Below, in pieces: positions 25,001 to 64,000 of a stretch of 64,000 nucleotides of DNA. Position 1 is the stretch's first letter. The number at the start of each line of letters is the position of its first letter. The stretch spans positions 288,001 to 352,000 of the forward strand of contig CAYLXA010000001.1 in assembly GCA_964387845.1 (NCBI GenBank), written 5' to 3'. This DNA comes from an uncultured bacterium (GTDB lineage Bacteria; Omnitrophota; Omnitrophia; Omnitrophales; Abzuiibacteriaceae). Both the position numbers and the translations under genes were made by a program. The notes beneath the pieces are model-generated. The model did not search any database, was not told the origin of the DNA, and worked only from the letters and a program-made list of their open reading frames with translations.

Positions 25001-28000
25001 TTTTGTATCGTCCGGCCAAAATCTGGCGCCATACTTCAGTGAGAATATTTTTACGCCCAGATCTGTGGATCTGTAACCAAACTTCCAATCATGAACGTCT
25101 TGATCCAGCATGACCGATAAGGCCCATAGCATCAAATTTCGATACGTGAAACCCGGATAAGACTGCGAGAATTTTCGTGTAGACGGCGGTATATCGGCCA
25201 AACGTTCTTCGGGCCATGCCGATACAACACTAATGAACCGCTTGACATAATCGGCCAGCAGCTCGTTGTCCGAGGGTTTCTTGATTTCTTTCCCGTCAAA
25301 TTCCTCAATATGAAGACCGGTCGGACGCAGATGTATGACTTGCGTCAAGCCCAATGTCCAGTAAGCGTAAAATAAATCCTCTAAACCACCCGCAAGCAGA
25401 TGATCCAGACGGCCTGCAAATTTTTCAAATTCGTCCAGGTCTTTGAAATAGGGATCGATTAACGTTGCCAAAAATTGGTTGAGGTTGCCGAATTTCTTGT
25501 CAAGGCCCCGGTTTTCCCATTCCCGGCGCAATTCGACGCCGAGCTCGCGTAATTCCCTATTCGAAAATCCTTCGGGCAATACCTTGCTCCAATAAATGCG
25601 CCTGTCCTCTGAGCCGCTTCTGGGCCAAAACCGATTGGAGTCGTGCGGGCTCAATAGAAACGTCAGAGCTTCAAGGATATCGCCTTCCGTCAGACTGTCA
25701 TAAATCTTATTCGGAGAGCCCGCTTGATCCATCAAATCGCGAATCACATCCATAACTTGATCGACTTTTGAACGTTGGGTGACCGCGGCAGTTTGCCTAA
25801 GTTCCGAACGGTTTTTCAGAATTTGCCGCCGTTCTTCGAGCGTAAAAAATTGTTTTTCGTAAGCTCTTTTTGCGGCTTCCCGGATTTTTCTATTAAACCG
25901 GTCTAAATCAGTTATTTCCTTCTTTAAAAAATCAAGCCACTGTTTTGGTTCAATGGTCATTTCCCCGAAAAATTCGTCGCTCAAAAGCATCAACAGCTGC
26001 ACAAATGCGACTTTGTACAAAGGATCTTCCTGATCCAAGGCAGCCCGCATCGCATCTGATACCGGAAGTACCGGATTCAGATAAGGGAACAGGATTTGAG
26101 CCGGATAGGACGACCGGATTAATTCATTCAATTTAGCTTCTACTTCAAAGTAAGCATGGGCCAACAACCCCTGCTGATCGCCTTCATACCCGCCCAGCGC
26201 ATGAGCCAGCAAACTTCCGGGACGCAGGATAGCTTTCATCACATTAATCCAATAGAGCGATGTTGAGTAATCGTTTTCTCCCTTATAAAATTCGTTTGCA
26301 AACACATAGGCATCGGAATGGCTAAGTTCCTCCTCTAAAACTCCGCTCCGGTATAATTGTGCGACATACCCATAATCGCCCAAACTATAAAAATGCATTT
26401 GAATCCAATCTCGTAAGTAAGCGACGGGTGATTGATCAAAATTGGGAAATTGATACTGGCCCGTTTCATATAACTTTTTCAAATTTTGGTAATAATCAAA
26501 ATTTTCTATCGAAGGAACGTCGGTGCCTTCAATAATGACAATATGCCTGTCTTTCGCAAATGCACTTAGGTAACTGTCGCTCTTTCCGTCTCTCGATTTG
26601 AGGCGAACGGTGTAAACCGGAACAAACCGGCCTGCCGCAGAGCGCTGAGATTCCCTTTTGATAATTTTACCGACCAAGAGTCCGCTGCCGTTCACTATGT
26701 CCACGATCAGGCCACGTGGAATTAAAATATCGTCCGCGATTTTTGTTCCTATTTTTCCGATATCATAAATAGAAATCAAATCTTTGTGGCCAAATGAAAA
26801 AGCGGCATCAAAATCCGGTGAAAGAGGCCTGAGAACCTGGTTGAATGTTTCAACGGCCTCAAGACGGTTTAAGTCATTTAGACTGGCTTTTTCGACTAGG
26901 TACTTTAGCTTCGGCCAATAGCTCACCCAAAACCATTCCACAACATCAAAGCTGGGGCTATCCGGATTTAGGAGCCTAAACTCTCTGATTAAGTTGAGAA
27001 TTTGATTCGCCTGGCTGGTGTTGAGCGTGATCTTTCCGCGCAAAGCTTTGATAATGCCTTGCGCATTTAAATTTTGAGTTTCCAAAAATTCTTTCAGAAC
27101 ATCTACGGTAAAAAAGCGTTTAATATTTTTTACGCTTAATTTCGAAATGATGAGAGCATGCAGCGTTTGAACCGGATCCGTATTTACTGCTTGTGCCGTC
27201 TGATTGCGCAATTCAGAGCGGAGTAGCTCAGACTGCGGGGCAGCGGTTTGACCTTGCAACGGGATTTCCCAGAAATTGCGGGCGTTGCGGGCAGAATCGA
27301 AGAATGCTCTGGCTTTCGCACGGTTGCCTTTGGTTAACTCGAATAATCCAAAAATAATTGCGTAAGCTCTTTCCGTAAAGCTACGCGACTTTTTTAGCAC
27401 AAAGTCACGGGCCAGCCACCGGTAACGGAATGCGTCAAAATGATACTGAAAACCGGCTTCCGGATCGTGAATCTTTTTAATTGTATTGCGCGAGGCTCCC
27501 TGAGAGTAGTGCTGATCTAAATAATCGCGGCCGTAGTTGGTAATCCCTGCATAGATCTTCTTAAAGCCCGAACGCCGCGCGACATCTTGAAGAATCTGAA
27601 TCGCTTCCGGCATCAGTTCATCGAAATATTTTGCACCGTCATTGTTAAACTCGAAACTGTTGACCGTTAGTACCGGATCTCCATTGTCTTCCGATGCAAT
27701 CATCCACATCTGTGCCCGATGCTGATAGGCATCGCCTGAACCCTTGTGATCGATGTCCGCCAGGATAATTCCGTCGTCACTCAGGAGAGAGGGCAAAATC
27801 CAGGAGACAAAATGCTGCAGAGAAATACAATTTCCGATGGCTTCACTTGAAGTGAGAAAATCTATCGCGCCTTTCAGGGTCTTTTTGTCGTGAATTCTTA
27901 TTCGAATTCCCTTTTCTTTATTTTCGTAAACCCTGCCCTTCTCAAATTCAGAAACATTGATGCCGATTGCCTGCATTTTTTTCTCAATGGCTGAAACATG

Positions 28001-31000
28001 GCCTGTTTTGCGAAGTCTTTCTGACAAATAATCACGCAATCTTTTGTAATACAAAATTCCGGGCGCAATATTGAGCCGCGTGCTGATCAAAAAAGTTCCT
28101 GGCGCGATAATTCCCATCAAAATAAAAAACAAGGCAGCATTTGAAATGAGAGGATAAATGGTAAAAACGCCGAACCCGACCAGAAACGCGAAAGCGGTCG
28201 GCGCCACCCAAGCATAAATGGGCCTTGGCGGCTTTCTAAGGCCTTTCAAAATGCGTGGATTCATCGTGACAATGTCGAGAGCATCTGCAATGCTGATCCC
28301 GAGTGCGCGCCGCACTTTGGCAATTTCGGAAATTTTCATGCGGCTCAGGCGCGTGGCTTTCATAAATTTCTGAACCGCCATGAGTTTGTCAAAAGCGTCT
28401 TTTTTAAGACTGTCCCGCACCGCTTTGTCTTCGGAAAGCCTGCGCATAGCTTCTTGATTTGAGGCTGACCAGACTACGGCAATAACTTCTTCCGTTTTTT
28501 TCCGCTGGTCAGGCGAAAGTTTATCCAAAAACTTAAGCACATTGACGAGATCGCCGTCTTTAACGGACACGTTGTACAGAATTTCTTCAAAAAAGTACCG
28601 CAAATTCCGGTTTGGACTTGGAAAATATTCGAGCAACTTTTCAAGTTTCGCGATTGCGCGCGGAGGATAGCTCATTTTCTGCGCAACGGGATTTTCATTA
28701 ATTTCAGCGAGAATGGTTTCGATAAATTTTGGATATGCGCGGAGCTCGGATCGCTGCTCATCGGTTTTTTTTGCGATTGCCCTCCTTTCAGACTTATGCT
28801 GAAACCACCACATTCCTCCAAAAAGAAGCAGAAGCGGCGGGATCAAGGAAGCATTGTCCGTAAGCCAGGCAACGGGCCCGGTCACAACAAGAACAAGCGA
28901 GGCTGTAATTGCCTTAAGAAAATATTGTTTCCGGAACTTAAACCACCACGTTTTATACTGAGTCGGAAAAATCTTAACGCGGTTCGATGGTTGAATTAAA
29001 TCCGTTACATAACCAATCACTTCACCTTTTGGGAAAGCATACTCCAAAGGCTCGACCGGATACCCATAAACGTCTAAATATTGTTTTTGGGAAGGATCGG
29101 CATATTCGATCGATACAAGCTCGGGCTGTTTGCCGGATTTCTTAACATAATCGACAAGCCTCTTAGGCCCTTGATTGAGCGGATAAGCAAAATAAAGAAC
29201 TGATTTAAATCCGCATGCCCGGGCATAGTTCTCGATGATTTTTTGAATTCCCTTCGCCTTTGCATCAAAAATTCGCCCCTCCACACCGTCCACAAATAAA
29301 ATCGGCTGTTCTTTTCCGTCTTGATCCTTATAAATCGCGGCGGCGATTCTGGCCCGTACCCGGCGGCCTTCGCGCGTACGGAAATCAATCGCTGAAATAC
29401 TTTTGTTGTGCAAATAATTAAACGGGCCCAGCGCACCTTTTGTTCTCCGGTTTAATTTGTCAAGCCACGTGTTGCCGCGAAGCGACGCCGAAGAAAAGAA
29501 ATCCTTTTGATTGGTTAAATCAAACCACGGATCGCGCCGCCAAATCCGGGCTTCTACAATTGAGTCCGGTAAATTTCCCCAATCGTCAATCTTGGAGATA
29601 CTTTTCTGAAGGTATTGATTGGCCTTCGCGGCATTGGGGTTTACATATTGGCCCAGCTCTTGCAGCAACTTTTTTCCTTCCTCGACAGGCAATTCACCTC
29701 TTTTATTCCTGGCCAATTCTTCTTTGTGCGCATTGAAAAATTGAGTGACCGACTTCTTACCCTCCTTTAAATTGGGCGTGTACTGTCCGGGCTTAAACTG
29801 GCGGTCTTCGGTTGAACCCAAAAAATCCCTGAGTATTTTCTGGATAAACTCGGGGATGGTTTGATTTTCCGCGTCTTCGAATTCCCCTGCCGGTACTTTT
29901 TCAATATTATCCCCGCGAATTTGATAATAGACTTTGTAATCCGGATTATCCCAATTTTCGTTGATGCCGACCGATTTGAGACGCTCCATGGTTTGAATCG
30001 CTGCCTCGGTCTGGTCAAACCATTGCCGGTAACTTCGCCGCTTAAGCATGGAGGCCAGATCCAACGCGGAAATTGTTTTCCACGAAAAAATGAACATTCG
30101 TTTCGCAAATACCGCCAAAATGTAAACCAAGGCTGTGAAACCTGACGCCACAAACAAGCTTTCAATCCATCCTGCGGGATCAGAATTGTTGATCATTTCC
30201 CTAATATTTAAGCTTGCTAAATTTCCATCCATCCAAAAAGAAATAGCGGAATAGAAAATTGTGAGCGCTGCGCGTTGAACCGAAGCATAGAAATATCCAA
30301 TAACGCCAGTGAAGGAAACCGCGAGAAGATGCAGCCACGGGTTCTGAATGAGCGCCGTACGGGCGTGCGCAATCCGTGCGCGTTCTAATTTTTCTTCGTT
30401 AATTTTGTTCAAGTCAATCTTTAAACTTTTAAACTTTTTCCACAAAAATTTCAGCTCCGGGAAACCGTCTTTCTCCATCCGCTCGTCGATTTCGGCAATG
30501 GTGAGATCTGAATTCTCACGCAGTTCACTGGCTGCCTTTGGATTTTTGCTTTTTCCGTTTCCGGAAAAAGCGTTGCGCGTCAGAACACCGATCGTTTTAA
30601 ACACCAGCGCGGTGTTATAAAGTGCCGACCGGTCCCGGATATCGTTTAACTCCAGCTCTATGTCATGCGTGTCCATGCCAAACTTTCCGGTTCCGATACC
30701 CCGCTTTAGAGCGCTTGAGCTGAGAAAACCCGGCTTGGTGTGATGTAAAACACTTTCGATATAATTTTGATCAACTTCCAAAGGTAAGCGCGGCCTTGGC
30801 CCAAACCATTGCATGTCACCGCGGACAATCGACAAGAGCTGCGGAAGCTCATCAAGCCCCGTTCTGCGCAAAAACCATTCGTAAGGCGTAATGCTTTCAT
30901 CTGAAATGTTGAAATCAAGTTTCATGGTTTTAATTTTTCGTATCACAATCGTCTTGCCCTGAAAACCGATTCGCTCTTGAATAAAAAACATGGGGCCGCT

Positions 31001-34084: not shown

Positions 34085-35578
34085 TTATCTGTTGGAAAGG
34101 GCTTCGACAAGCGCTTTTCCCTTGTGAAGCGTCTCTTGATACTCTGCGGCGGGTTTTGAATCATGCACAATACCGGCGCCGACTTGGAAGTAACCCTTTT
34201 GCTGATTAATCACGATTGTGCGGATCACAATGTTGAGATCCAGATCACCATCAAAACCAAAATAGCCAATGGAGCCGGTATAAATCCCGCGTTTGAAAGG
34301 TTCCAGCTCTTCGATAATTTCCATACAGCGAATCTTTGGGCATCCCGTGATAGTTCCGCCCGGGAACATCGCGCGTACCAAATCAAATTGATCCGCATCA
34401 TCACGAAGCTCGCCCTTTACGTTTGAGACAATGTGCACAACGTGTGAATATTCCTCAAGCGCCATCATCTCGCTCACGCGCACCGTGTGCGGCTTGCACA
34501 CGCGCCCCAAATCATTGCGTTCCAGATCTACTAGCATAATGTGCTCGGCGCGCTCTTTATCATTTGAGATAAGTTCACTGCGCAGTTTCTGATTTTGCAC
34601 TGCCGTTTTCCCGCGCGGCCGGGTCCCTGCAATCGGGCGCGTTTCGCACGCACTTCCCCGCTTTTTGATGAGGCGCTCCGGCGAAGAGCTAATCACCTGC
34701 AAATCGCCGAGACGAAAGAAACTGGAAAAAGGTGACGGATTGATATCCCGCAAACGTTCATAGAGTTTCTCAGAACTTCCTGAGAAATCAAACGAGAACC
34801 GCTGTGAAAGATTGGCTTGATAAATATCGCCTGCCTCTATGTAATCTTTGCCTTTTTTGACAATCGCTTCGAATTTTGATTTTTGAATATCAGATTTAAA
34901 ATTCTGAATTTGTATTTGTCCATTTTGATAAAGCGTTTGATTGAGTTTCGAGAGAGTCTCTTGAATCCAATTTTGACTTTCACTTAGCTGATCCTCAAAA
35001 CTCTTTCTCTCGGAAGGCATTAAATTGCTGATGAGATAAATCGCTTTCTTTGATTCATCGTAAGCGATCAAATTTCGGATGAATAGGAAAACAGCTTCAT
35101 CCAGTTTTTGGTCATTCTTCGCCCGGTTGGGCAGGCGTTCAAAATCCCACGCCAAATCATAGGAAAAATAACCAACCGCGCCGCCTAAAAATTCAGGGCC
35201 GGCGTTCCATTTTCTTCCGCGATAAGTTTTAAAGAGCTTGCGCATTTCCAGAAGAAAATCACCGCGTTTTTTTACGACCCTCACCCTGCCCTCTCCCTCA
35301 GGGAGAGGGAAACGCGAAGCGTGGGTGAGGGATTTTTCGATCGAAATATTTTTACCCTGCTTTCGCAAGATTAAAAACGGGTCGCTGGCCATATAGGAAA
35401 ATGTACCGGTTTTCTGGTGAAAGCGCGCGCTATCCAGGATAAACGAATTTTCGGAAGACTGGATCCTGCGGAAAGTTTCCCAGGAACTCAACGAAGCGGG
35501 GATTTTTTGGATCAGCGGAACAATGAAGCCTTTTTGGAAATATTTTCGAAGTGTCGTGATGGGCAGAACGTTATTCAT
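34085..35578 (-). CDS. pabB: chorismate-binding enzyme, aminodeoxychorismate synthase component I (PabB) / anthranilate synthase component I family
   Basis: C-terminal chorismate-binding signature (PIAGTRPRG...ERAEHIMLVDLERNDLGRV...GGTITGCPK). Assigned PabB-like because pabC-like and folC genes are nearby and no trpG/trpD is present. Confidence 0.65.
   Translation of the reverse strand: MNNVLPITTLRKYFQKGFIVPLIQKIPASLSSWETFRRIQSSENSFILDSARFHQKTGTFSYMASDPFLILRKQGKNISIEKSLTHASRFPLPEGEGRVRVVKKRGDFLLEMRKLFKTYRGRKWNAGPEFLGGAVGYFSYDLAWDFERLPNRAKNDQKLDEAVFLFIRNLIAYDESKKAIYLISNLMPSERKSFEDQLSESQNWIQETLSKLNQTLYQNGQIQIQNFKSDIQKSKFEAIVKKGKDYIEAGDIYQANLSQRFSFDFSGSSEKLYERLRDINPSPFSSFFRLGDLQVISSSPERLIKKRGSACETRPIAGTRPRGKTAVQNQKLRSELISNDKERAEHIMLVDLERNDLGRVCKPHTVRVSEMMALEEYSHVVHIVSNVKGELRDDADQFDLVRAMFPGGTITGCPKIRCMEIIEELEPFKRGIYTGSIGYFGFDGDLDLNIVIRTIVINQQKGYFQVGAGIVHDSKPAAEYQETLHKGKALVEALSNR
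35278..35331. repeat. family ii nested palindromic element, copy B, inside the pabB-like coding frame
   Basis: ccctcaccctgccctctccctcagggagagggaaacgcgaagcgtgggtgaggg. It is translated in frame as FPLPEGEGRVRVV near aa 85-100. Confidence 0.5.
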
Positions 35579-40832: not shown

Positions 40833-40908
40833 CGCCCTCACCCCCTCCGGGCCTAAGGCCCGATAGGGCCGGAGGCTCACCCTACCCCTCTCCCAAAGGG
40901 AGAGGGAA
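40833..40908. repeat. family ii nested palindromic element, copy C
   Basis: gccctcaccccctccgggcctaaggcccgatagggccggaggctcaccctacccctctcccaaagggagaggg. Confidence 0.5.
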
Positions 40909-52202: not shown

Positions 52203-54938
52203 TTAACCTGTGCTTTTCATGCCAAAAGCAATGCCATTTAGGGCTAATAAAAGCACGTCTTTTATCTGATTCTGGCGGACAGCACTTTGGTTTGTGCTCT
52301 TTTTTGATTCTTCTAAAAACCGGACTTGAAGAAAATTCAAGGGATCAACGTACGGATTCCGCAAACGAATTGACTCTTTGAGAACCGGATGAAACCCCAA
52401 TAAGTCGTCTTGCCCGGTAATTTCAAGAATTTGATCACAGCTCCGCGCATACTCTTCTTTGATCCGGCCGAAAATCTCAGACCGCACGGCCTCGGAATCC
52501 ACCAAAGCAGAATACCGTTCGGCAATATACATATCCGCTTTTGCGAGAGATACGCGCGCATTGTCAATCAACATATGAAAAAAGGGCCATTTTTGGTACA
52601 TTTCGCGAAGTTCGGCCAAACCTTTTTTGCCTGACTGCTTGATCTCCGCTTCAAGTGCATAGCCGATCCCATACCAGGCCGGTAAAATAAACCTCGACTG
52701 AACCCAGCTGAATACCCACGGAATCGCGCGCAGATCTTGAAATTCCCGCGAACGCTTGCGCGATGCCGGCCGTGAGCCGATCTGCGCAATCCCAAAAAGC
52801 TGAATAGGTGTTGCGGAATAAAAGAATTCTTTAAAACCGGGCGAATCAAAAACCAAATCGCGATAAAATCTGAGCGATGTTTGGCATAGTTCTTCCATCT
52901 TTTTCTCCCATTCGGCAATTTTACGGCTTCTTGCCCATTCATGCTTGCCGACTAAATTGGTCCAAATGACGGCAGTCGCCAGCTGCTCCAAATTTCTTTG
53001 CGCAATCATCAGGTTGGCATACTTCTGCGAAACGACTTCGCCCTGCTCCGTAATCCTGATCTTTCCGCCCACCGCCGCATACGGCTGCGCCAAAATGGCT
53101 TTATGCGACTGTCCGCCTCCGCGGTCGATGGTGCCGCCTTTGCCGTGGAAAAACCGGACGGCGACATTAAATTTCTCGGCCATTTCGACCATCCGCTTCT
53201 GTGCAAGGTACAACTTCCAATTCGCCGCAAAATATCCGCCGTCTTTGTTGCTATCCGAATAGCCGAACATGATTTCCTGCAAATTGCCTTGGCTTTGCAC
53301 ATAGGAACGGTAAAGCGGAAGTGAAAAAAGTTTTTGCATAATCAAATGAGCTTCTGCTAGCGATTCGATTTTTTCAAAAAGCGGCACAATCGCCAGACAG
53401 CTTTCAACGACTTTTTTGCCTTTAACTTTGATTAAGCCCGCACGAACCGCCAAATACATAAACCCAAGAATATCTTCGGGCTTTTCAGCCATGCTTAATA
53501 AATAATTCTTCACATAAGAGCGGCCCATTTTTTCCTGAATTTCTTTGATGAGCTCAAGCTGCCGGATGATATCTTTGGATTCGGCGGATAGCCGGCGCGC
53601 TTTTTTAAACTGCGCGTTTTTCTTCGTGATTGCGCCAATCAATTGCCCGGCGGTTGGTTCAAATCCGAAAAGCTCCTTGACCGCATGCATGATTTTCCGG
53701 CTGTCGTCCCGGAAATCCAAAGCGGCCAAATGAAAACCGAATACGCGCACCTGGCAAATTAAATTTTCTAAATCACCCGCCACCGCAAACCGGCCTTTGT
53801 TCTTCTGCAGACTTTCTTGAATAATCAAAAGATCCGCCAAGAATTCATCCGGCGATTGATACTGAACGGATTTTTGCTGATACGTGTTTGAAAGTTTTCG
53901 GTGAATAAAAGAAAGTTTTTTTCGATAGAGTTCGCTCGACTCATATTTGTCGAGTTCGGAAGCCAACTTGGGCATCAAGCGGCGGTCGTTGGCAAGCGAA
54001 GCCAAAAAGGAACGCCCGGCGCCGATCATTTGGTCTGATTGGCTGAATTTCAGCATCAGCGCTTCGCAAGCGTTCAGGTAGAGCGTAAAAATAAGCTCTC
54101 GGTGGCGCCTTGCGGTTTCTTCGGTCACCTGGCAAGTCACATTGGGATTACCGTCGCGGTCGGCACCGACCCAGGAGCCAAAACGCACCAGCGGCAAATC
54201 GCTGATTTTTCCCGTTGATTCATAAAATTCATCATGACTTTTTTGAACGATTCGATGAAAAGCCGGAATCAGGGGGAAAATGGTTTTCTCAAAGAAAAAG
54301 AGAGTTTGGTCCACTTCATCCAAAACCGAAACTTTTTTCGTGCGGGTTGGTTTTGTCTGCCATAAAATTTCGAGCAATTCCTTGATCTTTAATGTATGAG
54401 TTTCCTTTTCGAAATTGGTAGCGTCCGGGTGATTGATTTGAGACAAGCTCGACGCGATTTCTAGAATATGGCTCAGAATGGTCCGCCGTTTGACTTCGGT
54501 CGGGTGCGCCGTTAAAACCAATTCGATATCCAAGCGATTGACAAGCCGGCTGACTTTTCGCTCGGAAATTTTTCGCTTAGACAAATCATGAAATAGTTTC
54601 CGGACCGACATATGCTGCAGCTGATTGTGCTTATCATATGCGCGTAGGCGGCGGATTCTTTCTGCTTCTTCGGCGATATTCGCGAGCTGAAAATAAATGG
54701 TGAATGCGCGCGCGATTTTGTACGCTTCCGGCACACTGAGTGATTGAATCAGCCGCCTTTTTTTGGCAATGAACGCCGGCGCATGGCTCTTCCGGATTTG
54801 CTTCGCAAAATGCCGGATTTTCTCGATCTTATTTAATAACGCAACCCCCTCCTGATCCCGGATCACATCGCCCAGAATTTTTCCGAGAAACCGGACATCC
54901 TGCCGCAATAGACTGTTTGACATGTTTTTATTTCTCAT
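52203..54938 (-). CDS. ppc: phosphoenolpyruvate carboxylase
   Basis: 911 aa; N terminus LRQDVRFLGKILGDVI, VFSWVQSRFILPAWYG and a Gly-rich C terminus match PEPC signatures. Confidence 0.9.
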   Translation of the reverse strand: MRNKNMSNSLLRQDVRFLGKILGDVIRDQEGVALLNKIEKIRHFAKQIRKSHAPAFIAKKRRLIQSLSVPEAYKIARAFTIYFQLANIAEEAERIRRLRAYDKHNQLQHMSVRKLFHDLSKRKISERKVSRLVNRLDIELVLTAHPTEVKRRTILSHILEIASSLSQINHPDATNFEKETHTLKIKELLEILWQTKPTRTKKVSVLDEVDQTLFFFEKTIFPLIPAFHRIVQKSHDEFYESTGKISDLPLVRFGSWVGADRDGNPNVTCQVTEETARRHRELIFTLYLNACEALMLKFSQSDQMIGAGRSFLASLANDRRLMPKLASELDKYESSELYRKKLSFIHRKLSNTYQQKSVQYQSPDEFLADLLIIQESLQKNKGRFAVAGDLENLICQVRVFGFHLAALDFRDDSRKIMHAVKELFGFEPTAGQLIGAITKKNAQFKKARRLSAESKDIIRQLELIKEIQEKMGRSYVKNYLLSMAEKPEDILGFMYLAVRAGLIKVKGKKVVESCLAIVPLFEKIESLAEAHLIMQKLFSLPLYRSYVQSQGNLQEIMFGYSDSNKDGGYFAANWKLYLAQKRMVEMAEKFNVAVRFFHGKGGTIDRGGGQSHKAILAQPYAAVGGKIRITEQGEVVSQKYANLMIAQRNLEQLATAVIWTNLVGKHEWARSRKIAEWEKKMEELCQTSLRFYRDLVFDSPGFKEFFYSATPIQLFGIAQIGSRPASRKRSREFQDLRAIPWVFSWVQSRFILPAWYGIGYALEAEIKQSGKKGLAELREMYQKWPFFHMLIDNARVSLAKADMYIAERYSALVDSEAVRSEIFGRIKEEYARSCDQILEITGQDDLLGFHPVLKESIRLRNPYVDPLNFLQVRFLEESKKSTNQSAVRQNQIKDVLLLALNGIAFGMKSTG

Positions 54939-56035
54939 AGATTAATCTTTGAACTTGGCTTGATTGAACGAATAAACAAAATGAAGATCGTCACGACTGT
55001 AATGGGTATTATAAATGCAAACATGATAGAACTAAAGATCGGCAGAGCGTCGTGTTGTGTCGATTGAAAAAGCAAATAACAAACATACGACACATAATAG
55101 CCGAAGAAAAGAGTCCCTTCCCATCTGGCAATCAAATGACCCGTAAAAAAAATGGGAAAGCAAGCAACAGATACTGCCACCATGACAGGTATGTCAAAAT
55201 TAAGCGCTGCTTTCGAAACTTGAATCCCCTCCGGAGCGAGCACAGCGGTTAAACCCACGACGGCAAGGATGTTATAAATATTCGAACCAACGATATTTCC
55301 TACCGCGATGTCACGCTCACCCCGCAATGTAGCAACAATAGATGTAGCGATTTCAGGCAAGCCGGTGCCAATCGCGACAACCGTGAGGCCTATCACGAGC
55401 TCGCTGATTCCAAAAAGTCTGGCAATCTGAACCGAACCATCCACAAACCATTTCGCCCCTAAAATTACGGCCAACAAACTTACAGCAATCCAGAGCAGCT
55501 TGGAAAAAATTATGGCTTTCTTGCTGTGGCTTGATGCTCTTTTTCCAAATTCCTTTTCATATTCCTCTTTGACTTGCCCAGCTTCTTTCTTGCTCATTTT
55601 TACGACAAACCAGGTATACAAAAAGATACCAGAAATCAGCAAAATACCGTCGAAACGGCCGATCGTTCCGTCCCATGCGGCAGCAAACAAAACACAAGAC
55701 ACCAGAATCATAACGGGAACATCCCAGCGCACAATCTGCTGAGCTACAAATAACGGAGCAATCATGGCGCAAGTCCCTAGAATTAGCAGCACATTCGATA
55801 TATTGCTTCCCACTACATTGCCGAGCGAAATATCAGATTGGCCGGAAAACCCGGTTTGAAGGCTCACAATGAGTTCGGGTGTGCTAGTTCCGTAAGCAAC
55901 CACCGTTAAACCAACCAACAAAGGCGAGATTCCCAATCGAACGGCAAGTTGCGATGAATGACGAACCAAAAGCTCAGCCCCTACAATGAGCAATCCAAGT
56001 CCGCCGCTTAAATAAAACCATGTTACGGCATTCAT
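54935..56035 (-). CDS. Ca2+/Na+ antiporter (CaCA family, YrbG-like)
   Basis: Two alpha-repeat regions (GNVVGSNISNVLLILG and GNIVGSNIYNILAVVG). ATGA overlap with ppc. Confidence 0.75.
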   Translation of the reverse strand: MNAVTWFYLSGGLGLLIVGAELLVRHSSQLAVRLGISPLLVGLTVVAYGTSTPELIVSLQTGFSGQSDISLGNVVGSNISNVLLILGTCAMIAPLFVAQQIVRWDVPVMILVSCVLFAAAWDGTIGRFDGILLISGIFLYTWFVVKMSKKEAGQVKEEYEKEFGKRASSHSKKAIIFSKLLWIAVSLLAVILGAKWFVDGSVQIARLFGISELVIGLTVVAIGTGLPEIATSIVATLRGERDIAVGNIVGSNIYNILAVVGLTAVLAPEGIQVSKAALNFDIPVMVAVSVACFPIFFTGHLIARWEGTLFFGYYVSYVCYLLFQSTQHDALPIFSSIMFAFIIPITVVTIFILFIRSIKPSSKINL

Positions 56036-56038
56036 TAT

Positions 56039-57157
56039 TTATTTGCTCAATTTCGCGGCGGGAGGAGAAGAAGAAAGCCAGATAACAGCCGCAATGAAGA
56101 ACCCGGTCAAGAGCAAATTCAAGGCAAGGCTCATGCCGGCCAGTGCAATGGCAGAGCCGCTAATCCCGTAGCTTAAAGCAACCAATAAAACACCTGCACC
56201 GACTTCGCCGCGAGGGAACATCGCAACGCTTACCGCGATTCGCTCGCGGAGAGTTGCTTCTTTGCCGTAACAAAATATCGGAAAACATTTGCCCACATTT
56301 GAGAGCACCGTTAAAAGCAGGACATGGATCACGGCCATTCCGATTGTGATTTCTCCAAGCTGAACTTTGGGAAGCGAACACCCGACCAAAAACATGAAAC
56401 CCGCTTTAATCGTCGGATCCACCATCGATTCTATTTGCTGAGGCAAAGTTTGGCGCGAAGCAGCTTGCGGCGCATGATGATGGCCTGCATGAGGATGATA
56501 CAAAACACAACCCAGCACGAATGCCGGCAAAAGCACCTCAAGATGAACTCCGGCTACAATTTCTACAAGAGAGCAAATGGCTACTATAATGATCGAATAC
56601 AACAAAATCCAAAGATTGCCCACCGGGAATTTCAAACTATGCAAATACCGGTAAGCCAGAACCAAAAGAATGACAATAACGACTATGATCGCACCGAGTT
56701 CGGGTTTTGCGCCGACAATCATGATTTTCAGCGGAATCATTAACAAAATAGTATCTAAGTCATCAAAAATTGCCAATATTCGGACTTTTCGGAAGATCCA
56801 AGTCGCACCAAGACCTGCAGCTAATAACATCGTAAACAAAACGCCGGCTGAAGTTGGTGCCGCAAAACGCCCCGCCAGTAGAGATTCTTGCCAATCCATT
56901 CCAAAAATATATACAAAATATGCCGCGCAAAAAATCCATGGAAAAGCAGCGGCCGTGGCGGCAACCAAATAATCTGTGGCGTAGGATTTGAGATTATTTT
57001 TATCAATTGTAAATTCAAGCCCTACTTGAATCATGATGTAGGCCAGACAGGTCATCGTTACCGCGTATAACAGCCCCTGAACTTTGGCCAAATCAAGGAA
57101 TTGAGATATGCCCATCCCTAATACAAGTAATAGGCTGAAAATAAAAACTTTCTTCAT
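56039..57157 (-). CDS. cation:proton antiporter family membrane protein
   Basis: 372 aa, about 11 TM helices, CPA-like core. Confidence 0.55.
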   Translation of the reverse strand: MKKVFIFSLLLVLGMGISQFLDLAKVQGLLYAVTMTCLAYIMIQVGLEFTIDKNNLKSYATDYLVAATAAAFPWIFCAAYFVYIFGMDWQESLLAGRFAAPTSAGVLFTMLLAAGLGATWIFRKVRILAIFDDLDTILLMIPLKIMIVGAKPELGAIIVVIVILLVLAYRYLHSLKFPVGNLWILLYSIIIVAICSLVEIVAGVHLEVLLPAFVLGCVLYHPHAGHHHAPQAASRQTLPQQIESMVDPTIKAGFMFLVGCSLPKVQLGEITIGMAVIHVLLLTVLSNVGKCFPIFCYGKEATLRERIAVSVAMFPRGEVGAGVLLVALSYGISGSAIALAGMSLALNLLLTGFFIAAVIWLSSSPPAAKLSK

Positions 57158-57253: not shown

Positions 57254-59038
57254 CTACGAACGAACTTTATGATAGCGGCTTCTTAATAGCAAGAGAAAAG
57301 CAACATCTGCCGCTACCACGGCGGAAACATACCCCACACCACCGCCGCCAAAACCATAACTATGAAGCCCGGCCGCTAAGACAAAATTCACGCCGTACCA
57401 GGCCATGATCACCGTCAAAAAGCAGACCGCGCACCAAAACGCGGTCGCGAATGAATCCAGCCAGCCGGCAGTTCGCCCATGCATAACCGCCAAATACGCA
57501 AGTAACGCAATCAAAGCCCAGGTTTCCTTCGGATCCCAGCCCCAAAACCGGCCCCATGAATAATTCGCCCAAACGCCGCCCAGGATTGTTCCGGCAGCGA
57601 GCAAAATAAGCCCAATTTGAAGCGAACGATAAAGAAAAGTAATAAGCTCATCTAACGTTTTATTATTTTTTTTCTTAAAAGCATAGTGAAACACAACCAC
57701 ATGCGCGACACCCCAATTGAGCAAAAACGCACCATAGCCGAGCGTAATCGTCAGCACATGAACTGTGAGCCAAAAATTGCTGCGCAAAACGGGAACCAAA
57801 GGCGAAATCGACTGGTCCAAAACCGCCGGTAAATTTTCGCTGATCAAGAGCGCCAGAATGGATACGGACGCTGCGATCATCGGAATCAAATAGGACCTGT
57901 AAAAAGCAAAAAGAATGAGCGAGAAAAGCACAACACTCCACGACACCCAAATGACTGACTCATACATGTTCGTCACGGGCGGACGCCCGGCGATTAAACA
58001 ACGCAGCACAAAACCCAACGTATGAACCGCAAAAGCCGCGGTAAAAAATGAGAAAGCGATTTTATTGGCGCGTTTTTTATTTCTCAGTGTCAGCCAGATC
58101 AGAAGGCTGCCTAAATAAATTGCCCATGCCGTATGAAACGGGCGAAATTTGAGATAGAAAAGCTCGTAATGAATCAACGTCCGGTCGATGATGATGTCGC
58201 GCGATTCCAGTAATTTTGTAAGCGCATTGGCGAAAAATGAAGCAGATACGCCGGCCATTTCGATTTTTTCATCCCGCAAGCGGCCGAGGAGAAATGAAAG
58301 TGAGTTACTCGCTTCCTTCACATTCGCCGCGGGATACATGGTTTCCAAAATGGAAATACCGTGATCGCTCGCAAGCCCCTCAAGCGGAACCCACCCCGCC
58401 TGTGGATCATCGGGATGCGGAATAAAGCCCGGCATTTCTCCGCGCCCGATAGCCTGAAACAGACGCGCTCTGCTTCCGAGTTCAATCATTGCCTTTTCGT
58501 ATTCGTTTAGTTTTTCTTTTCTGTCCTGCTTAGCCCTTACTTCACCTGTTCTTGCCGTAAAATTCAAATCGGCGAGAACAAGAGAAGGTGCGATTCTATT
58601 GTTTTCCAGATCCGCGGAGAAATCCTTTCGTAACTCGGGATTTGAAACAGGTAAAATAGCCTTCGCGCTCCAAATATCGGGGGCCGCAATCCATCGCCAC
58701 ACCAGTTCGGTTGGCTCCATTTTTTGAAAATGTGTTTTGCCGGTCATATAGAGGACGATTTCTTTCGCGAAACTCTCAAACGGCTTGACGCGGCCGCCCT
58801 GCTGAACCGGAATTCCACCCAAAACTTCGTGCGCATTACCTTCGGATTGATTGGCAAAGGATTGGGGCGAGAAAAACATCGCCAAGAGAATGACTAAAGA
58901 AAGACTGACAATAAATTTACAATACACCCCCTCACCCTTTCCCTCTCCCTGAGGGAGAGGGGAATTGTTTAACTCACTCCCTCTCCCGCTTGCGGGAGAG
59001 GGCTGGGGTGAGGGTTGATTATTTAGAAATTGTCTCAT
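57254..59038 (-). CDS. ccsA: cytochrome c biogenesis protein CcsA (system II heme-handling WWD-domain protein) with a long N-terminal periplasmic domain
   Basis: WGRFWGWDPKETWALI (WWD motif) and conserved His residues. ATG 59038 overlaps the ccsB stop (TAATG) but would translate a palindromic repeat as MRQFLNNQPSPQPSPASGRGSELNNSPLPQGEGKGEG. An in-frame GTG at 58927 would instead start directly at a signal peptide (VYCKFIVSLSLVILLAMFFSPQSFA). Confidence 0.75.
   Translation of the reverse strand: MRQFLNNQPSPQPSPASGRGSELNNSPLPQGEGKGEGVYCKFIVSLSLVILLAMFFSPQSFANQSEGNAHEVLGGIPVQQGGRVKPFESFAKEIVLYMTGKTHFQKMEPTELVWRWIAAPDIWSAKAILPVSNPELRKDFSADLENNRIAPSLVLADLNFTARTGEVRAKQDRKEKLNEYEKAMIELGSRARLFQAIGRGEMPGFIPHPDDPQAGWVPLEGLASDHGISILETMYPAANVKEASNSLSFLLGRLRDEKIEMAGVSASFFANALTKLLESRDIIIDRTLIHYELFYLKFRPFHTAWAIYLGSLLIWLTLRNKKRANKIAFSFFTAAFAVHTLGFVLRCLIAGRPPVTNMYESVIWVSWSVVLFSLILFAFYRSYLIPMIAASVSILALLISENLPAVLDQSISPLVPVLRSNFWLTVHVLTITLGYGAFLLNWGVAHVVVFHYAFKKKNNKTLDELITFLYRSLQIGLILLAAGTILGGVWANYSWGRFWGWDPKETWALIALLAYLAVMHGRTAGWLDSFATAFWCAVCFLTVIMAWYGVNFVLAAGLHSYGFGGGGVGYVSAVVAADVAFLLLLRSRYHKVRS
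58927..59006. repeat. family ii nested palindromic element, copy D (two inner CCCTCTCCC/GGGAGAGGG palindromes inside a CCCTCACCC/GGGTGAGGG outer pair)
   Basis: ccctcaccctttccctctccctgagggagaggggaattgtttaactcactccctctcccgcttgcgggagagggctggggtgaggg. Confidence 0.55.
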
Positions 59039-60798
59039 TAGATTTTCCTCATTTTGGGGTCACTGGTCTTAAGCGTCGAATATTGTTTTAAATAGAATAA
59101 CAAAATAATTCCGACTATCATCACAATCGAACCCGCATATTTAACCGGGATACCGGGGTCGCGCGCAACTGTAAAGACGGAAATATCCGGCTCGCCGGGC
59201 GTCACTTGATACGCAGATTGATACACTTTGAAACTACGATGAACGAGCGGTTCATTCATCTGAATCAATTGATCGCGGCTGATTCCCTTCGCTACGTCTT
59301 TCAAAGTGACCTGGCTTTTGAAACTGGCGGGCCGGTTGGTGCCGGGATCCGTATCCATTAAAAAATCATTCAATTGAATCGTGAAGCCCAGCGGTTGCGT
59401 CTCAAGCCCATAAACAAAGTGCCAATCATGGCCGCCTAACTGAGTCCGTTCAACCTGGCCCTGCCGAAGCCATAAATTTTGAGATTCATTTCCGTCCGAT
59501 AGTTCGATTTGAATGACGCGAGTTGCGCCTGTGCGCTCTGAAGCGAGAGGAATCGGAGAAAATGAACGTTCTACTTCGGCATGATGATAAAAAGCATCAA
59601 CACTGAATTTAAAATCCATCCATCCGGTTTCAATTTGTTTGCCGATTTCGACAATGCCGTCCGTAAGCAAATCGCCCTTTTTAACTTGATAGCGCGGTAA
59701 ACCGTCCGGATTATAAATGAACCGAAGTTCGTTCTTTGAAGCCGCTTGATCCGCTTGGCCGGCCATTTTCATCGCAATCCGCATTCCGGAAGCGCTTGGC
59801 GCCATGCCATGCACAGTCGGAAAATCGGGAAAATTCGCGAAAATGGTATGCTGTTCGTTCAATCCATCGCCTTCCAAGATCAATTCCACCGCGGGGTTCC
59901 GCCACTCCTTGGAACGGTCAATCAATTTGTTTTGATCTACAATCGCATCACGCAAAATACGGTTGAGCTTAGCGCGGATTTTAGTGCCTTGAAGCGTAAA
60001 TGATTTTGGTTTGTCGGATTCCTTGATCGGAACCTGAATGATTTTACCCGATTTGAGCATAAATTCTAAATGCGCAAATTCATCTCCCGATTTTTTCTTC
60101 GGTTTCTCGATGTCAATCGGTTGGCGCGCAAAATGAATGACGGCGGCACCCATGGCTAGCTGATTTTTTTCGGGATTATCCAAGAAAAGCCAATCGTTGG
60201 TTTGCGCCATCGATCCGGATAGTGAAAATTGAATGGCGGGAGACCCTTTGGCGGATTCTTTGACAGATTCTCCCAAAACCGCTTTCGGGAAATCCTGCAA
60301 AACATGGATCTGAACGGAGCTTTTCGGCTTCAATTCCAATTTCCGGCGCCCGGACCACGGAAACACGCTTGGTTTATAATGCATGACAAAATGTTCTTTC
60401 AAATCGGGAGAGAAAATTTCAAGTATCGGATTCGCCAAAGTCATACGGCTTTCGGAATCGCCTTCCTGAATCGACACCTGCCCTTCAATCCCGAAACGCT
60501 GCGTGATCAAAGAACCAATGAGAATCAAGATGATTCCGAGATGGGTCAAAAGAAAACCGATGTGCTGCTTGCGCCACGGCCAACGGCTGATTGCGGATGC
60601 GGCTAAATTAATCGCCAGTAAAACCAAAACAATCGAAAACCAAGGAGTATAATAAATCAAGCGCTGGGCGGCTTCCGCACCGTGATACGACTCGATGAAG
60701 GTGCCGGCAGCCACAATAATCGCGACAGTTACAATAAGCAGAACCGCGCACCAAAGCGAAGCAAAAAATTTGAATAGGTCGGACAATAGATGATTCAT
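59038..60798 (-). CDS. ccsB: cytochrome c biogenesis protein CcsB / ResB
   Basis: 586 aa, N-terminal TM helices, large periplasmic domain, C-terminal TM; ResB family pattern. Immediately upstream of ccsA. Confidence 0.8.
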   Translation of the reverse strand: MNHLLSDLFKFFASLWCAVLLIVTVAIIVAAGTFIESYHGAEAAQRLIYYTPWFSIVLVLLAINLAASAISRWPWRKQHIGFLLTHLGIILILIGSLITQRFGIEGQVSIQEGDSESRMTLANPILEIFSPDLKEHFVMHYKPSVFPWSGRRKLELKPKSSVQIHVLQDFPKAVLGESVKESAKGSPAIQFSLSGSMAQTNDWLFLDNPEKNQLAMGAAVIHFARQPIDIEKPKKKSGDEFAHLEFMLKSGKIIQVPIKESDKPKSFTLQGTKIRAKLNRILRDAIVDQNKLIDRSKEWRNPAVELILEGDGLNEQHTIFANFPDFPTVHGMAPSASGMRIAMKMAGQADQAASKNELRFIYNPDGLPRYQVKKGDLLTDGIVEIGKQIETGWMDFKFSVDAFYHHAEVERSFSPIPLASERTGATRVIQIELSDGNESQNLWLRQGQVERTQLGGHDWHFVYGLETQPLGFTIQLNDFLMDTDPGTNRPASFKSQVTLKDVAKGISRDQLIQMNEPLVHRSFKVYQSAYQVTPGEPDISVFTVARDPGIPVKYAGSIVMIVGIILLFYLKQYSTLKTSDPKMRKI

Positions 60799-60898
60799 AA
60801 CAGTTTAAGATAAGGGGTAATTATACATGATTGGCATAGCACACGTCATTAGAAACCGAAATTAGTTTAAGCGGGAATTAATTAGACTGATTGAAGAA

Positions 60899-62986
60899 TC
60901 AGCCCCAAGCCAAGCTGATTTCGCAGGAAATTAAATGCGCAATGTAATCGCCAAATTCGGCGTTGGAATTGGCAAGATAGTAATAAAGTCCGTATTTTGG
61001 CTCAACAGTTACTTTTTCATTCACATTCCATTTCAAGCCCGCTTCCAAATCCAGTTTCCGATAATCAGATCCGATCGGCAAGCCTCTGGCAGTAAAATCA
61101 TTAAAATTATCAGCACGGGCATATTGCACCGATTGAATAAACGAAACATTTTCTTTCGGCATGTAGCTCGTACTCAATGTCCACGTATCCACATTCGCGT
61201 TAAAACCCGGCAGGTTACCGCTTAATGCGCCGGCGGCCGGAGTATTGGTGTTTGACATAAGCTTTGAATAGGAGCCCAGAATCATTACATTTTCAACGGG
61301 TTGCGATGTAAAATCAAAAATAAAATTATTTGAGGTTGTTTCCGTATCAACGCCTGCTAAATTTTCAATGTTCGTCCTGTAATTTGTATCGCGCCCGATA
61401 AACCGAAAAGACGGCTGAAGATATTTGGTTAATGTCAATGCCAACCTCATCATGAATTCATTAATATAGGTGTGCTGGCTGTCAAAAAATGCAGATTTTG
61501 AAACTCCTGATGAAACAGTTTCGTAAATATCATCGTAATCCGTCATTTTAAGAGTCCTTCGAAAATGCGAAGTAATCCGCACAAATGAAAACGGCGCTGC
61601 GTGCCCGCCTAAAGTCATCACGCCACGCTGGATGTTTGTAATCGTTTCGCGAATAAAAACTTCACTTGCACTCGCCCCCGACTGTCCGCCAACGCTATCC
61701 CGATTTTCAGACATCGGTAACCGGTCTTGTTCTAATTCCAATTCTGTATAAATAGCCGTCCGCGGAATCGCCGTAAATCTGGCCGTAATCCCTTGTCCCC
61801 ACCTGAAACCGCTCATACGCGTATCGCTGACGTCAAATCGGTTAATGCGATTATCGGGCGGATCTGTGGTCTCAACGTTATAAGTAGACTCTCCGCGGCG
61901 ATTTAAAAATTCTGACTTAACCTTTGCGCCGATATTGAACCATTTTGTGACCAGGGCCATCATATTAGCAACCCAGGTGTTGGAATGAAAATGGTTGGTT
62001 GCGATATTGCCAAAACGGTTTTCAGCATTTGCAAATGAACGCGGATTACCATTTTCGTCAAACTCTCGGATATCTTCCCATTCTTTGTTATGGATTTGTG
62101 CATATCGATACCCAGCCGAAGTGTACACTTTGTCCTTTAAAAACCACTTCGCGATTCCAAATATTGAGCTGAAAGTGTGTGCTTCCGGCTTTTGCTGCTG
62201 CTTTCTAATTAATTTATTACCAGCCGTAGCATCAGAGTCAGCGCCAAAATATTTCTCGACGCGTGTGTTATCGGATTTCACAATTTCAAATTTTTGCTCG
62301 CTTTTAAGTTCATAACCTTTAACGGTATGGTCGACTTTCAAGCCAAACGTATCCGCCACTTCGCTCACATCCTGATAGGAAGGCGCTATTTTCCGCGTCA
62401 CACCGCTCTGAACCACGTCTCCCCATGTTAATCTGGATTTTGCACCATTTTTAAATTCGCGCTCATACCCAATCATTACTTTTGGAAAATCCGGTATATC
62501 CAGCTCCGCTTCAACGCCGAAATGGCCGATGTCCAGTTCTAAATCTTTAACCGCGTCGCCAACCCGGAGTGTGTAGTCGCCCCGCGTTAGATTAAACGGA
62601 TGATAAACACCGCCCGTCCGGTCATAATATTTCCGGAACTCTTGGTAATCAAATTTGATTTGTCCCACTTCTTTTTTCTTGATGATGACAACGCCTTCGT
62701 AATCATTGTCCGCGGGGATTGCCTTGCCTTCCATTTTTACCGTAATATCATTCGGAAGCCTGTAAAAAGAATAAAATTCCTCAACGCCTGCGGCGTAATT
62801 GTTGCTCTTCCAATGATGCGCTCTGAATTTATCGGCTTCCCCGTCCACAAAAATATAACGGACCGGAAGAGGTGTGATATCAAGATGATTTTCTGAATTA
62901 TTTTCCGAAGCTGCGTATAGAGATTGAGTGACGGCCAAAGAGACATACGCTAAAACGAATATTAACTTCCAATATGAGCGTCTCAT
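60899..62986 (-). CDS. large predicted outer-membrane beta-barrel protein (about 695 aa) with signal peptide
   Basis: Start at ATG 62986 (MRRSYWKLIFVLAYVSLAVTQSLYA, SD GGAGG upstream). Alternating amphipathic beta-strand pattern with abundant aromatic residues. Follows the multiheme cytochrome gene after a 10-nt gap. Confidence 0.55.
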   Translation of the reverse strand: MRRSYWKLIFVLAYVSLAVTQSLYAASENNSENHLDITPLPVRYIFVDGEADKFRAHHWKSNNYAAGVEEFYSFYRLPNDITVKMEGKAIPADNDYEGVVIIKKKEVGQIKFDYQEFRKYYDRTGGVYHPFNLTRGDYTLRVGDAVKDLELDIGHFGVEAELDIPDFPKVMIGYEREFKNGAKSRLTWGDVVQSGVTRKIAPSYQDVSEVADTFGLKVDHTVKGYELKSEQKFEIVKSDNTRVEKYFGADSDATAGNKLIRKQQQKPEAHTFSSIFGIAKWFLKDKVYTSAGYRYAQIHNKEWEDIREFDENGNPRSFANAENRFGNIATNHFHSNTWVANMMALVTKWFNIGAKVKSEFLNRRGESTYNVETTDPPDNRINRFDVSDTRMSGFRWGQGITARFTAIPRTAIYTELELEQDRLPMSENRDSVGGQSGASASEVFIRETITNIQRGVMTLGGHAAPFSFVRITSHFRRTLKMTDYDDIYETVSSGVSKSAFFDSQHTYINEFMMRLALTLTKYLQPSFRFIGRDTNYRTNIENLAGVDTETTSNNFIFDFTSQPVENVMILGSYSKLMSNTNTPAAGALSGNLPGFNANVDTWTLSTSYMPKENVSFIQSVQYARADNFNDFTARGLPIGSDYRKLDLEAGLKWNVNEKVTVEPKYGLYYYLANSNAEFGDYIAHLISCEISLAWG

Positions 62987-62996
62987 GACGGCCTCC

Positions 62997-63779
62997 TTAA
63001 TATCGAAGATGATCGTCAAAATTGGAACCATGAACCGCCGTGTGGCACTTCGCGCTGAAGCAAGTGCCTTGCGCAAGGCGCGTAGCATGATTAGAACTTC
63101 CGATGAACGGAAAATTATCTTGTGTATGACAACGTAAACATAAATTACTGTCGCGGGCAATCAGCATTTTGTCAGTAATCGAGCCATGAACTTGATGACA
63201 TGTCGTGCAGCCTTCGCGCAGCGCTTCATGCTCCCACACAAACGGGCCGCGTTGTTCTTTATGACATTTAAAGCATGCTTCGTTGACATCTTCCATGGTT
63301 GTGGATGACCATGGCCTGACTTCCGGTCCGTGCGGACTATGGCAGTCCGAACAACTCATCTTTCCTTCGAGCACGGGATGGTGGTGCGGAAGATTAAATT
63401 CTACTTTTTTATCGGTATGACACGCAAAACAGACGGACGGATCTTTTCTGGGATTAATGATTTTCTTATCTTGGCTGGATTCTTTTAACTTATCATCCAT
63501 ATCGACATGTAGACTTCCGGGGCCATGACAAAGCTCGCAGCCTTGTACCGCCATATCTTTTCCGGGAATGCTGATACGGGAATGGGTCGAAAGTTCAAAC
63601 TCTTTGACTTCTTTTTCATGGCAAGCGGCGCAAGTATCCATACCGACATACTCCGCGCCTTCTATGTTATGAACTTCGAGAACTTTTTGGAGGGCTTCTT
63701 CGTCGTATTTGCAAGAAGTGACACTGAGAACGAGGGATAATACCGCAAAACTAACAAAAATGCTGGCTTTTTGATTCAT
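62997..63779 (-). CDS. multiheme c-type cytochrome lipoprotein (7 CxxCH plus 1 CX4CH heme-binding motifs)
   Basis: Signal peptide with lipobox (LSVTSC). Motifs CAACH, CELCH, CFACH, CSDCH, CFKCH, CTTCH, CLRCH and CFSAKCH. Confidence 0.8.
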   Translation of the reverse strand: MNQKASIFVSFAVLSLVLSVTSCKYDEEALQKVLEVHNIEGAEYVGMDTCAACHEKEVKEFELSTHSRISIPGKDMAVQGCELCHGPGSLHVDMDDKLKESSQDKKIINPRKDPSVCFACHTDKKVEFNLPHHHPVLEGKMSCSDCHSPHGPEVRPWSSTTMEDVNEACFKCHKEQRGPFVWEHEALREGCTTCHQVHGSITDKMLIARDSNLCLRCHTQDNFPFIGSSNHATRLAQGTCFSAKCHTAVHGSNFDDHLRY

Positions 63780-63885
63780 GCTAGCGGTTTATGATTTGTG
63801 TTTGCGTACGAATTATATTGTTTTATTAAGAAATGACAATCGCTTTTATGGCAGTGAAATTATCGACATTTCCTGAAAAACTTTA

Positions 63886-63901
63886 TGTGACATCTGTCAC
63901 T
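63886..63901. promoter_or_regulatory. CRP/FNR-family-like site TGTGA-N6-TCACt upstream of the cytochrome gene
   Basis: tgtgacatctgtcact, about 107 bp upstream of the cytochrome ATG. One mismatch to TGTGA-N6-TCACA. Confidence 0.3.
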
Positions 63902-63912
63902 TAAATTGACGT

Positions 63913-64000
63913 TTATGCAGGGCCGCCGGTATGGCAATCCATGCACGATATTTCTTTCCATGATTCTTGATCGCCGTCGGGATGCTTAAATTCCAGCCCA
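63913..64000 (-). CDS. C-terminal end of another c-type cytochrome (partial, continues past the window end)
   Basis: The minus-strand frame reads ...GLEFKHPDGDQESWKEISCMDCHTGGPA* with a CMDCH heme motif; stop TAA at 63913-63915. Confidence 0.5.
   Translation of the reverse strand, partial: GLEFKHPDGDQESWKEISCMDCHTGGPA

Follow-up and report, generated by a model that had tools for sequence, protein, structure and literature searches.

An octahaem MtrA-like cytochrome gene paired with a gene for an MtrB-like outer-membrane barrel in an uncultured Omnitrophota bacterium

Which proteins could carry electrons across the outer membrane of the Omnitrophota, a group of abundant, uncultivated and mostly ultra-small bacteria from groundwater and sediments, whose energy metabolism is, to our knowledge, known only from gene lists? 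The question is raised by a 64,000-nucleotide stretch of a contig from the family Abzuiibacteriaceae (CAYLXA010000001.1, positions 288,001 to 352,000), hereafter called the window. An earlier note, made from the sequence alone, had read the genes at 57254-64000 of the window as a multihaem cytochrome, a large outer-membrane barrel and a cytochrome maturation system, reminiscent of a porin-cytochrome electron conduit. Our analysis, which is computational, supports that reading: the 260-amino acid (aa) cytochrome is homologous to MtrA, the 695-aa barrel has an MtrB-like fold, the two genes are invariably paired, an ImcH-like gene is their neighbor and ccsBA genes are linked to them. We favor, with moderate confidence, a two-component porin-cytochrome conduit of the MtrAB type, made up of these two proteins and with outward electron flow. 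All genes within 57254-64000 are located on the minus strand, and all elements of the cluster described in the earlier note are present:

64000..63913, minus strand: 3' end of an ImcH-like inner-membrane multihaem cytochrome gene (last 28 codons and stop, ...SCMDCHTGGPA*)
63912..63780, minus strand: spacer of 133 nucleotides (nt) with a candidate promoter and the palindrome GTGACAGATGTCAC
63779..62997, minus strand: octahaem MtrA-like c-type cytochrome, 260 aa, predicted lipoprotein (haem motifs, TIGR03508, match to 6r2q_A)
62986..60899, minus strand: outer-membrane beta-barrel, 695 aa, about 26 strands, MtrB-like fold (structure model)
60898..60799, minus strand: spacer of 100 nt before resB, with a promoter-like site
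60798..59038, minus strand: ResB/CcsB of system II cytochrome c biogenesis, 586 aa (PF05140)
59038..57254, minus strand: CcsA, a haem handling protein of the ResC type, with a long N-terminal domain in the periplasm (PF01578)

The ATG start codon of the barrel gene is located exactly 10 nt past the stop codon of the cytochrome gene and is preceded, 5 nt upstream, by the sequence AAGGAGG; this short gap and strong Shine-Dalgarno sequence suggest that the two genes are translationally coupled. The program-made list of open reading frames (ORFs) gives the barrel as a 753-aa version with a TTG codon, which is an unlikely start. The arrangement proposed before, with a 10-nt gap between cytochrome and barrel followed by CcsB and CcsA, is borne out in every element by the coordinates and the Pfam matches, and the second cytochrome gene that was thought to cross the window edge is seen as a 3' end with one CXXCH motif.

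The cytochrome contains seven CXXCH motifs followed by a CX4CH motif (CFSAKCH), which adds up to the eight haem motifs counted previously and corresponds to about 30 residues per haem. Its sole strong match among the PDB sequences (phmmer, E=2.9e-41) is 6r2q_A, which is MtrA, chain A of the Shewanella baltica MtrCAB complex (PDB 6R2Q). Residues 107-254, with haem motifs 3-8, are collinear with MtrA residues 173-325 (MtrA haems 5-10), and residues 23-151 align more weakly with MtrA residues 39-168, placing haems 1-2 against MtrA haems 1-2, so that, judged from this alignment, the protein is an MtrA homolog that has lost two internal haems. The score of 175.7 bits against TIGR03508, the NCBIfam model for the DmsE/MtrA decahaem family, is below the cutoff of 192.2, a shortfall that fits two missing haems, and the cytochrome also matches the GSU2203-type decahaem model in NCBIfam. 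Rather than the ten CXXCH motifs of the MtrA/DmsE/MtoA/PioA family, eight motifs are present and are kept in 25 homologs with 62-92% identity, in which the CX4CH motif and nine histidines outside the motifs are likewise invariant; nine additional histidines would be enough for eight bis-His haems. The signal peptide ends with V-T-S-C23, which we take to be a lipobox. Since, of the 25 homologs, just the 11 of the closest clade have the lipobox cysteine, the lipid anchor is a feature of that clade and not essential to the cytochrome family.

No haem motif is found in the barrel protein, which carries a classical signal peptide (...SLYA/AS). AlphaFold2 modeling from a 43-sequence alignment yielded an all-beta structure with a predicted local distance difference test score (pLDDT) of 89.4 and a predicted template modeling score (pTM) of 0.79, in which 26 long strands span residue 34 through the C-terminus and a plug domain is lacking. 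In a Foldseek search against the PDB, MtrB (6r2q_B) ranked first (E=4.4e-11); both fold searches gave it as the best match, and no other hit came close to its aligned length. MtrB of 6R2Q is a 26-strand barrel, as quoted in PMC12133095, and the strand count of the model, a check that had been proposed earlier, is the same. Two other outer-membrane proteins named earlier as refuting matches were considered and rejected: a TonB-dependent receptor would have a plug, a TonB box and 22 strands, and LptD was indicated neither by a family match nor by the fold.

The barrel also contains a strongly conserved N-terminal motif, P-x-R-Y-x-F-V-x-G-D-x-x-K-F-R-A-H-H-W, at residues 41-59 (window about 62866-62810), in which P41, G49 and W59 are invariant. 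The model places a short helix (residues 51-58) within this motif, between strands 1 and 2, and the motif could be a contact with the cytochrome.

A word-indexed search identified 69 relatives, and six of the seven named ones are from metagenome-assembled genomes (MAGs) of Candidatus Omnitrophica/Omnitrophota. A scan of one genome per species recovered 38 loci, mostly in groundwater Omnitrophota MAGs and one in a Syntrophales MAG, and the cytochrome-barrel module is also present in a MAG labelled Candidatus Eisenbacteria (L044). We examined the gene order in the 36 loci whose sequence reaches 850 nt or more upstream of the barrel: an MtrA-like octahaem gene is located directly upstream on the same strand in every one of them, and the pairing persists at barrel identities as low as 25% and also in other phyla. 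The recurrence in 36 of 36 loci shows that the arrangement is no chance juxtaposition, and it is the strongest argument that the cytochrome and the barrel work together. A full hidden Markov model (HMM) search found 914 representatives of the barrel family at 50% identity (E<=1e-3); this family is large and unnamed by current models, and iron-cycling surveys that use MtrB/PioB models could therefore miss such barrels.

In a remote subfamily of barrels of about 800 aa (alignment A3), a PSCyt1 monohaem cytochrome c domain is fused to the N-terminus in 28 of 40 members. The sole fusion locus of this type that was examined (L043, 5562-7991) has an MtrA-like gene 10 nt upstream of the fused barrel, and so represents a cytochrome-porin fusion added to a porin-cytochrome pair.

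For the DNA past position 64000, a closely related contig, L001, was used as a stand-in; its barrel and cytochrome are 93% and 92% identical to those of the window. The genes upstream of the L001 octahaem gene are, in order:

gene 1: tetrahaem cytochrome of c554 type, 192 aa
gene 2: protein of 496 aa with three transmembrane (TM) segments, CX3CH beside TM3, six CXXCH motifs and an NrfH/NapC-like module
gene 3: protein of 651 aa with 11 CXXCH motifs fused to a dihaem cytochrome b domain, followed by the octahaem gene

The 496-aa protein has every feature listed for ImcH (about 500 aa, three N-terminal TM segments, CX3CH, six CXXCH motifs and a NapC/NirT-like core), and the 496-aa and 651-aa proteins match the architectures described for ImcH and CbcL/MtrH/MtoC, respectively (PMC6295460). 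The ORF cut by the window edge ends with ...GLEFKHPDGDQESWKEISCMDCHTGGPA*, and it shares 24 of its 28 residues with the C-terminus of the L001 ImcH-like protein, not with that of the CbcL-like one. Judged from these 28 codons, the cut gene would encode an ImcH-like inner-membrane quinol oxidase. The window spacer at 63780-63912, compared with L001 7108-9207, aligns with the region between cbcL and mtrA, and the two matches together indicate that an imcH-like gene is located directly upstream of the octahaem gene in the window and that cbcL is absent at this locus.

Of 42 loci, 18 have an ImcH-like gene and 14 have ResB, a component of ccsBA, within the flanks that were fetched. Further genes in other relatives encode a membrane-anchored cytochrome with nine haems, a Rieske protein and cytochrome b, and one relative has a sigma-54 two-component system. 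The order is barrel, 9-haem cytochrome and cytochrome b, followed by a c554-type tetrahaem gene and imcH, in L007, L013, L019, L020, L028, L030 and L038, and the 9-haem cytochrome has a C-terminal membrane anchor where the ends were inspected. A Rieske gene is found in L004, and probably in L028. This suggests that a Rieske/cytochrome b complex is wired to multihaem cytochromes in these relatives.

From these gene arrangements we infer the following route for the preferred conduit. Electrons of the quinol pool would leave via the ImcH-like cytochrome encoded directly upstream, and in relatives also via CbcL-like and Rieske/cytochrome b modules, and a small tetrahaem cytochrome would carry them over the periplasm. 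The cytochrome and the barrel would form a complex in which eight bis-His c-type haems, sheathed in the 26-strand barrel, pass the electrons through the outer membrane to an extracellular acceptor, which may be an Fe(III)/Mn(IV) mineral, humic matter or a partner cell. Haem attachment would be the task of ResB and CcsA. An outward direction is favored because Fe(III) reducers are the only organisms to which ImcH homologs have been tied to date (PMC6295460), and because the cluster in a relative is flanked by genes for the tricarboxylic acid (TCA) cycle and succinate dehydrogenase, as fits a respiratory heterotroph, rather than by genes for autotrophy.

Several observations weigh against an MtrAB-type conduit of this kind. 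The barrel gave no Pfam or NCBIfam match at E<=0.1, PF11854 and the MtrB/PioB model included, and a profile of the barrel family found nothing meaningful among the PDB sequences, which means that the relation to MtrB is one of fold and not of sequence. Weak PF11854 matches were obtained for 1 of 43 close relatives and 6 of 40 remote ones; the two that were inspected (P0055 and P0327) are partial and off-register, and we rejected them as evidence of homology. Because the barrel family is not linked by sequence to PF11854 or to PDB entries, we regard the barrel as MtrB-like by fold and genomic role and do not claim membership of the MtrB_PioB family; in the comparison with MtrB and PioB that had been proposed, the fold held up and the family match did not. 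The AlphaFold2 model of the cytochrome, made as a single chain without haems from a 25-sequence alignment, had a pLDDT of 39.7 and was unusable. Eight haems make a shorter wire than in MtrA, and the spanning of the barrel is a prediction. Finally, no gene for an extracellular MtrC/OmcB-type cytochrome was found in the window or in the L001 flanks, nor do these flanks encode the additional outer-membrane cytochromes that the earlier note had suggested to look for upstream.

The missing mtrC-type gene is also what makes inward flow through the same MtrAB-like conduit a serious rival, since the layout is that of MtoAB and PioAB. Electrons would then be taken from Fe(II), reduced minerals, humics, a cathode-like surface or a partner cell and delivered to cytochromes in the periplasm and to either the quinone pool or a terminal reductase, as in those systems. 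Rieske/cytochrome b genes adjoin the pair in several relatives, and proteins of the CbcL/MtoC family occur in both oxidizers and reducers (PMC6295460), both of which are compatible with an inward direction. However, the ties of ImcH to Fe(III) reducers point the other way, the window genome has no CbcL/MtoC-like gene at this locus, and no genes for carbon fixation, a terminal oxidase or a nitrate reductase were seen among the scanned window ORFs, which are a subset, and the cluster flanks. We consider inward flow possible but rather unlikely.

More speculatively, the octahaem-barrel pair might be a minimal, self-sufficient wire through the outer membrane that does without an extracellular cytochrome, as part of the family of 914 clusters, which would extend over Omnitrophota and further uncultivated phyla; in ultra-small and possibly host-dependent Omnitrophota it would serve not to respire minerals but to exchange electrons directly with a host or partner cell. 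We consider this idea doubtful.

It is improbable that no conduit is formed and that an ordinary periplasmic carrier of NrfB type shares an operon with an unrelated porin or transporter. In favor of this reading, Pfam places NrfB-like and cytochrome c7 domains in the cytochrome, no family is assigned to the barrel, and fold searches find large barrels alike whatever their kind. However, the best matches of the cytochrome are to the MtrA/DmsE family and to MtrA itself, and a soluble NrfB-like partner, which the earlier note had held to be incompatible with a conduit, is not what the comparison indicates. The pairing in all 36 loci, at low barrel identity and across phyla, the rank and aligned length of MtrB in both fold searches, the fused monohaem domain of the remote subfamily and the lack of a plug domain also argue against two unrelated proteins.

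Very improbable is a DmsEF-like role, in which the pair would feed a dedicated extracellular terminal reductase encoded elsewhere instead of minerals: the cytochrome scores on the DmsE-family model TIGR03508, and DmsEF is described (PMC9732548) as an MtrAB paralog pair that serves a reductase on the outer surface, but no gene for a molybdoenzyme or other reductase is found beside the pair in the loci with listed neighbors, where the recurrent neighbors are cytochromes and quinol oxidases.

We compared the preferred MtrAB-type pair to the known systems. In Shewanella MtrA/MtrB (6R2Q) and its paralogs DmsE/DmsF, the cytochrome gene likewise comes first and the barrel gene second, and the window pair resembles MtrA/MtrB in the six collinear C-terminal haems and in a barrel of about the same size with the same number of strands. 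It differs in having eight haems instead of ten, CX4CH as the last motif and a lipoprotein signal in this clade, in a barrel that PF11854 and the NCBIfam models do not detect, in the lack of an adjacent mtrC or omcA gene, and in an inner-membrane partner that is ImcH-like and not CymA. MtoAB of Sideroxydans and PioAB of Rhodopseudomonas are alike in the two-component layout with an MtrA-family cytochrome and no gene for an extracellular cytochrome, and the CbcL/MtoC-type genes in relatives of the window locus are a further likeness. However, MtoA and PioA are decahaem proteins, and the PioB and MtoB barrels are larger and recognized by the MtrB_PioB model, neither of which applies to the window pair. 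The Pcc cluster of Geobacter (OmaB-OmbB-OmcB) likewise combines an octahaem periplasmic cytochrome with a porin-like protein of the outer membrane, and is served by ImcH and CbcL inner-membrane cytochromes in the same organism. In contrast to the window pair, OmbB is described as a smaller porin-like protein and the Pcc cluster includes a 12-haem outer-membrane lipoprotein cytochrome (PMC4245776); the window cytochrome is clearly of the MtrA type and its barrel has 26 strands and 695 aa.

Iron-related genes have been noticed in this phylum before. Zhong and Shi (2018) listed three CbcL and three ImcH homologs in Omnitrophica, Seymour et al. (2023) used FeGenie and identified, in 10 of 23 Omnitrophia species, homologs of periplasmic cytochromes of the Desulfovibrio ferrophilus type (PMC10066038), and Casar et al. 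(2021) included Omnitrophica among the taxa with iron-cycling genes (PMC8478452). The "metal-reducing cytochromes" of these surveys were flagged by generic HMMs (PMC10066038, PMC8478452), and the matches in Omnitrophota probably represent this compact Mtr-type conduit. The 2018 survey found no mtrAB or mtoAB adjacent to imcH (PMC6295460); an imcH-like gene beside an mtrAB-like pair, as in the window, is a combination that it explicitly did not find and that was not reported for mtoAB or mtrAB. Outside the Proteobacteria, Mtr genes have been described for Desulfobacterota, and a full-text literature search of incomplete coverage did not turn up any account of this barrel family in combination with an octahaem MtrA. 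The Mtr-type porin-cytochrome is itself known; new here are the eight haems, the lipoprotein anchor of the clade, the sequence-divergent barrel and the linkage to imcH. A wire of eight haems would be a useful natural test of the number of haems needed to span the outer membrane, and the locus offers a way to test for extracellular electron transfer in the Omnitrophota.

Downstream of the barrel, ResB/CcsB matches PF05140 with 91.6 bits (cutoff 24.6), and the nearly identical ResB homolog of L001 has TM-like segments at both ends. CcsA matches PF01578 with 112.6 bits and contains the WWD motif (WGWDPKETW), and it scores 161.5 bits against TIGR03144, below the equivalog cutoff of 187.6. As in known system II clusters, the genes for CcsB/ResB and CcsA/ResC are adjacent, both Pfam families score well above the cutoffs and the WWD motif is present, whereas the window CcsA differs by a periplasmic N-terminal extension of about 300 aa and its score for TIGR03144. 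By these matches, the two proteins are bona fide system II components. The recurrent linkage of ccsBA suggests that the whole cytochrome island is co-inherited; it is no proof of dedicated maturation. Of the claim that the conduit has its own maturation system, the presence of system II genes directly downstream and their recurrent linkage thus stand, and the rest is an argument from linkage, as these ccsBA genes may be the only system II of the genome.

The first 37 codons of the CcsA ORF traverse a palindromic element that resembles repetitive extragenic palindromic (REP) sequences (58929-59014). Translation probably starts at the GTG at 58927, which yields an N-terminus equivalent to that of the L004 homolog. 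The core CCCTCTCCC-N3-GGGAGAGGG is present at four places in the window, with eight strand matches as compared to none expected by chance:

58929..59014, no strand assigned: composite palindromic REP-like element at the resB-ccsA junction, with the core at 58941-58961 (plus 58980-59003)
15120-15140: REP-like copy
35289-35309: REP-like copy
40886-40906: REP-like copy

The annotated ccsA ORF reads through the composite copy as "...SPLPQGEGKGEG...", and another copy is located inside the 5' part of an anthranilate synthase ORF.

The spacer upstream of the octahaem gene holds the best promoter-like site of the scanned stretch, the candidate TTGTCA-16-TATAAT at 63839..63812, and a second site was found in the gap before resB:

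60820..60849, minus strand: promoter-like site ATGACG-18-TATAAT (consensus match only)

The totals of promoter-like sites and terminators are at the level of chance (14 vs 12 and 11 vs 9.8, respectively), and what is suggestive is only where the two best promoter-like sites lie. No sigma-54 promoter was found in the window, which was searched because a sigma-54 activator adjoins the pair in L004, and an Rfam scan of the window gave no matches. The perfect palindrome GTGACAGATGTCAC at 63887-63900 is single-copy in the window and was found upstream of the cytochrome gene in 3 of 35 sequences (the window, L001 and L023; 34 related loci were checked); it may be a putative operator.

Beyond the cluster, the minus-strand region 52203-57157 encodes a phosphoenolpyruvate carboxylase and two membrane-transporter-like proteins (366 and 372 aa) between ccsA and a fatty-acid desaturase gene. 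In L001 the desaturase gene directly follows ccsA, so that the two close relatives differ here by an insertion or a deletion. On the minus strand, 16031-33958 is occupied by a giant 5975-aa ORF with Pfam matches to domains of the methyltransferase, bacterial sugar transferase, PPDK_N, histidine phosphatase and HPr families; ORFs of very large size are among the traits listed for the Omnitrophota (PMC10066038).

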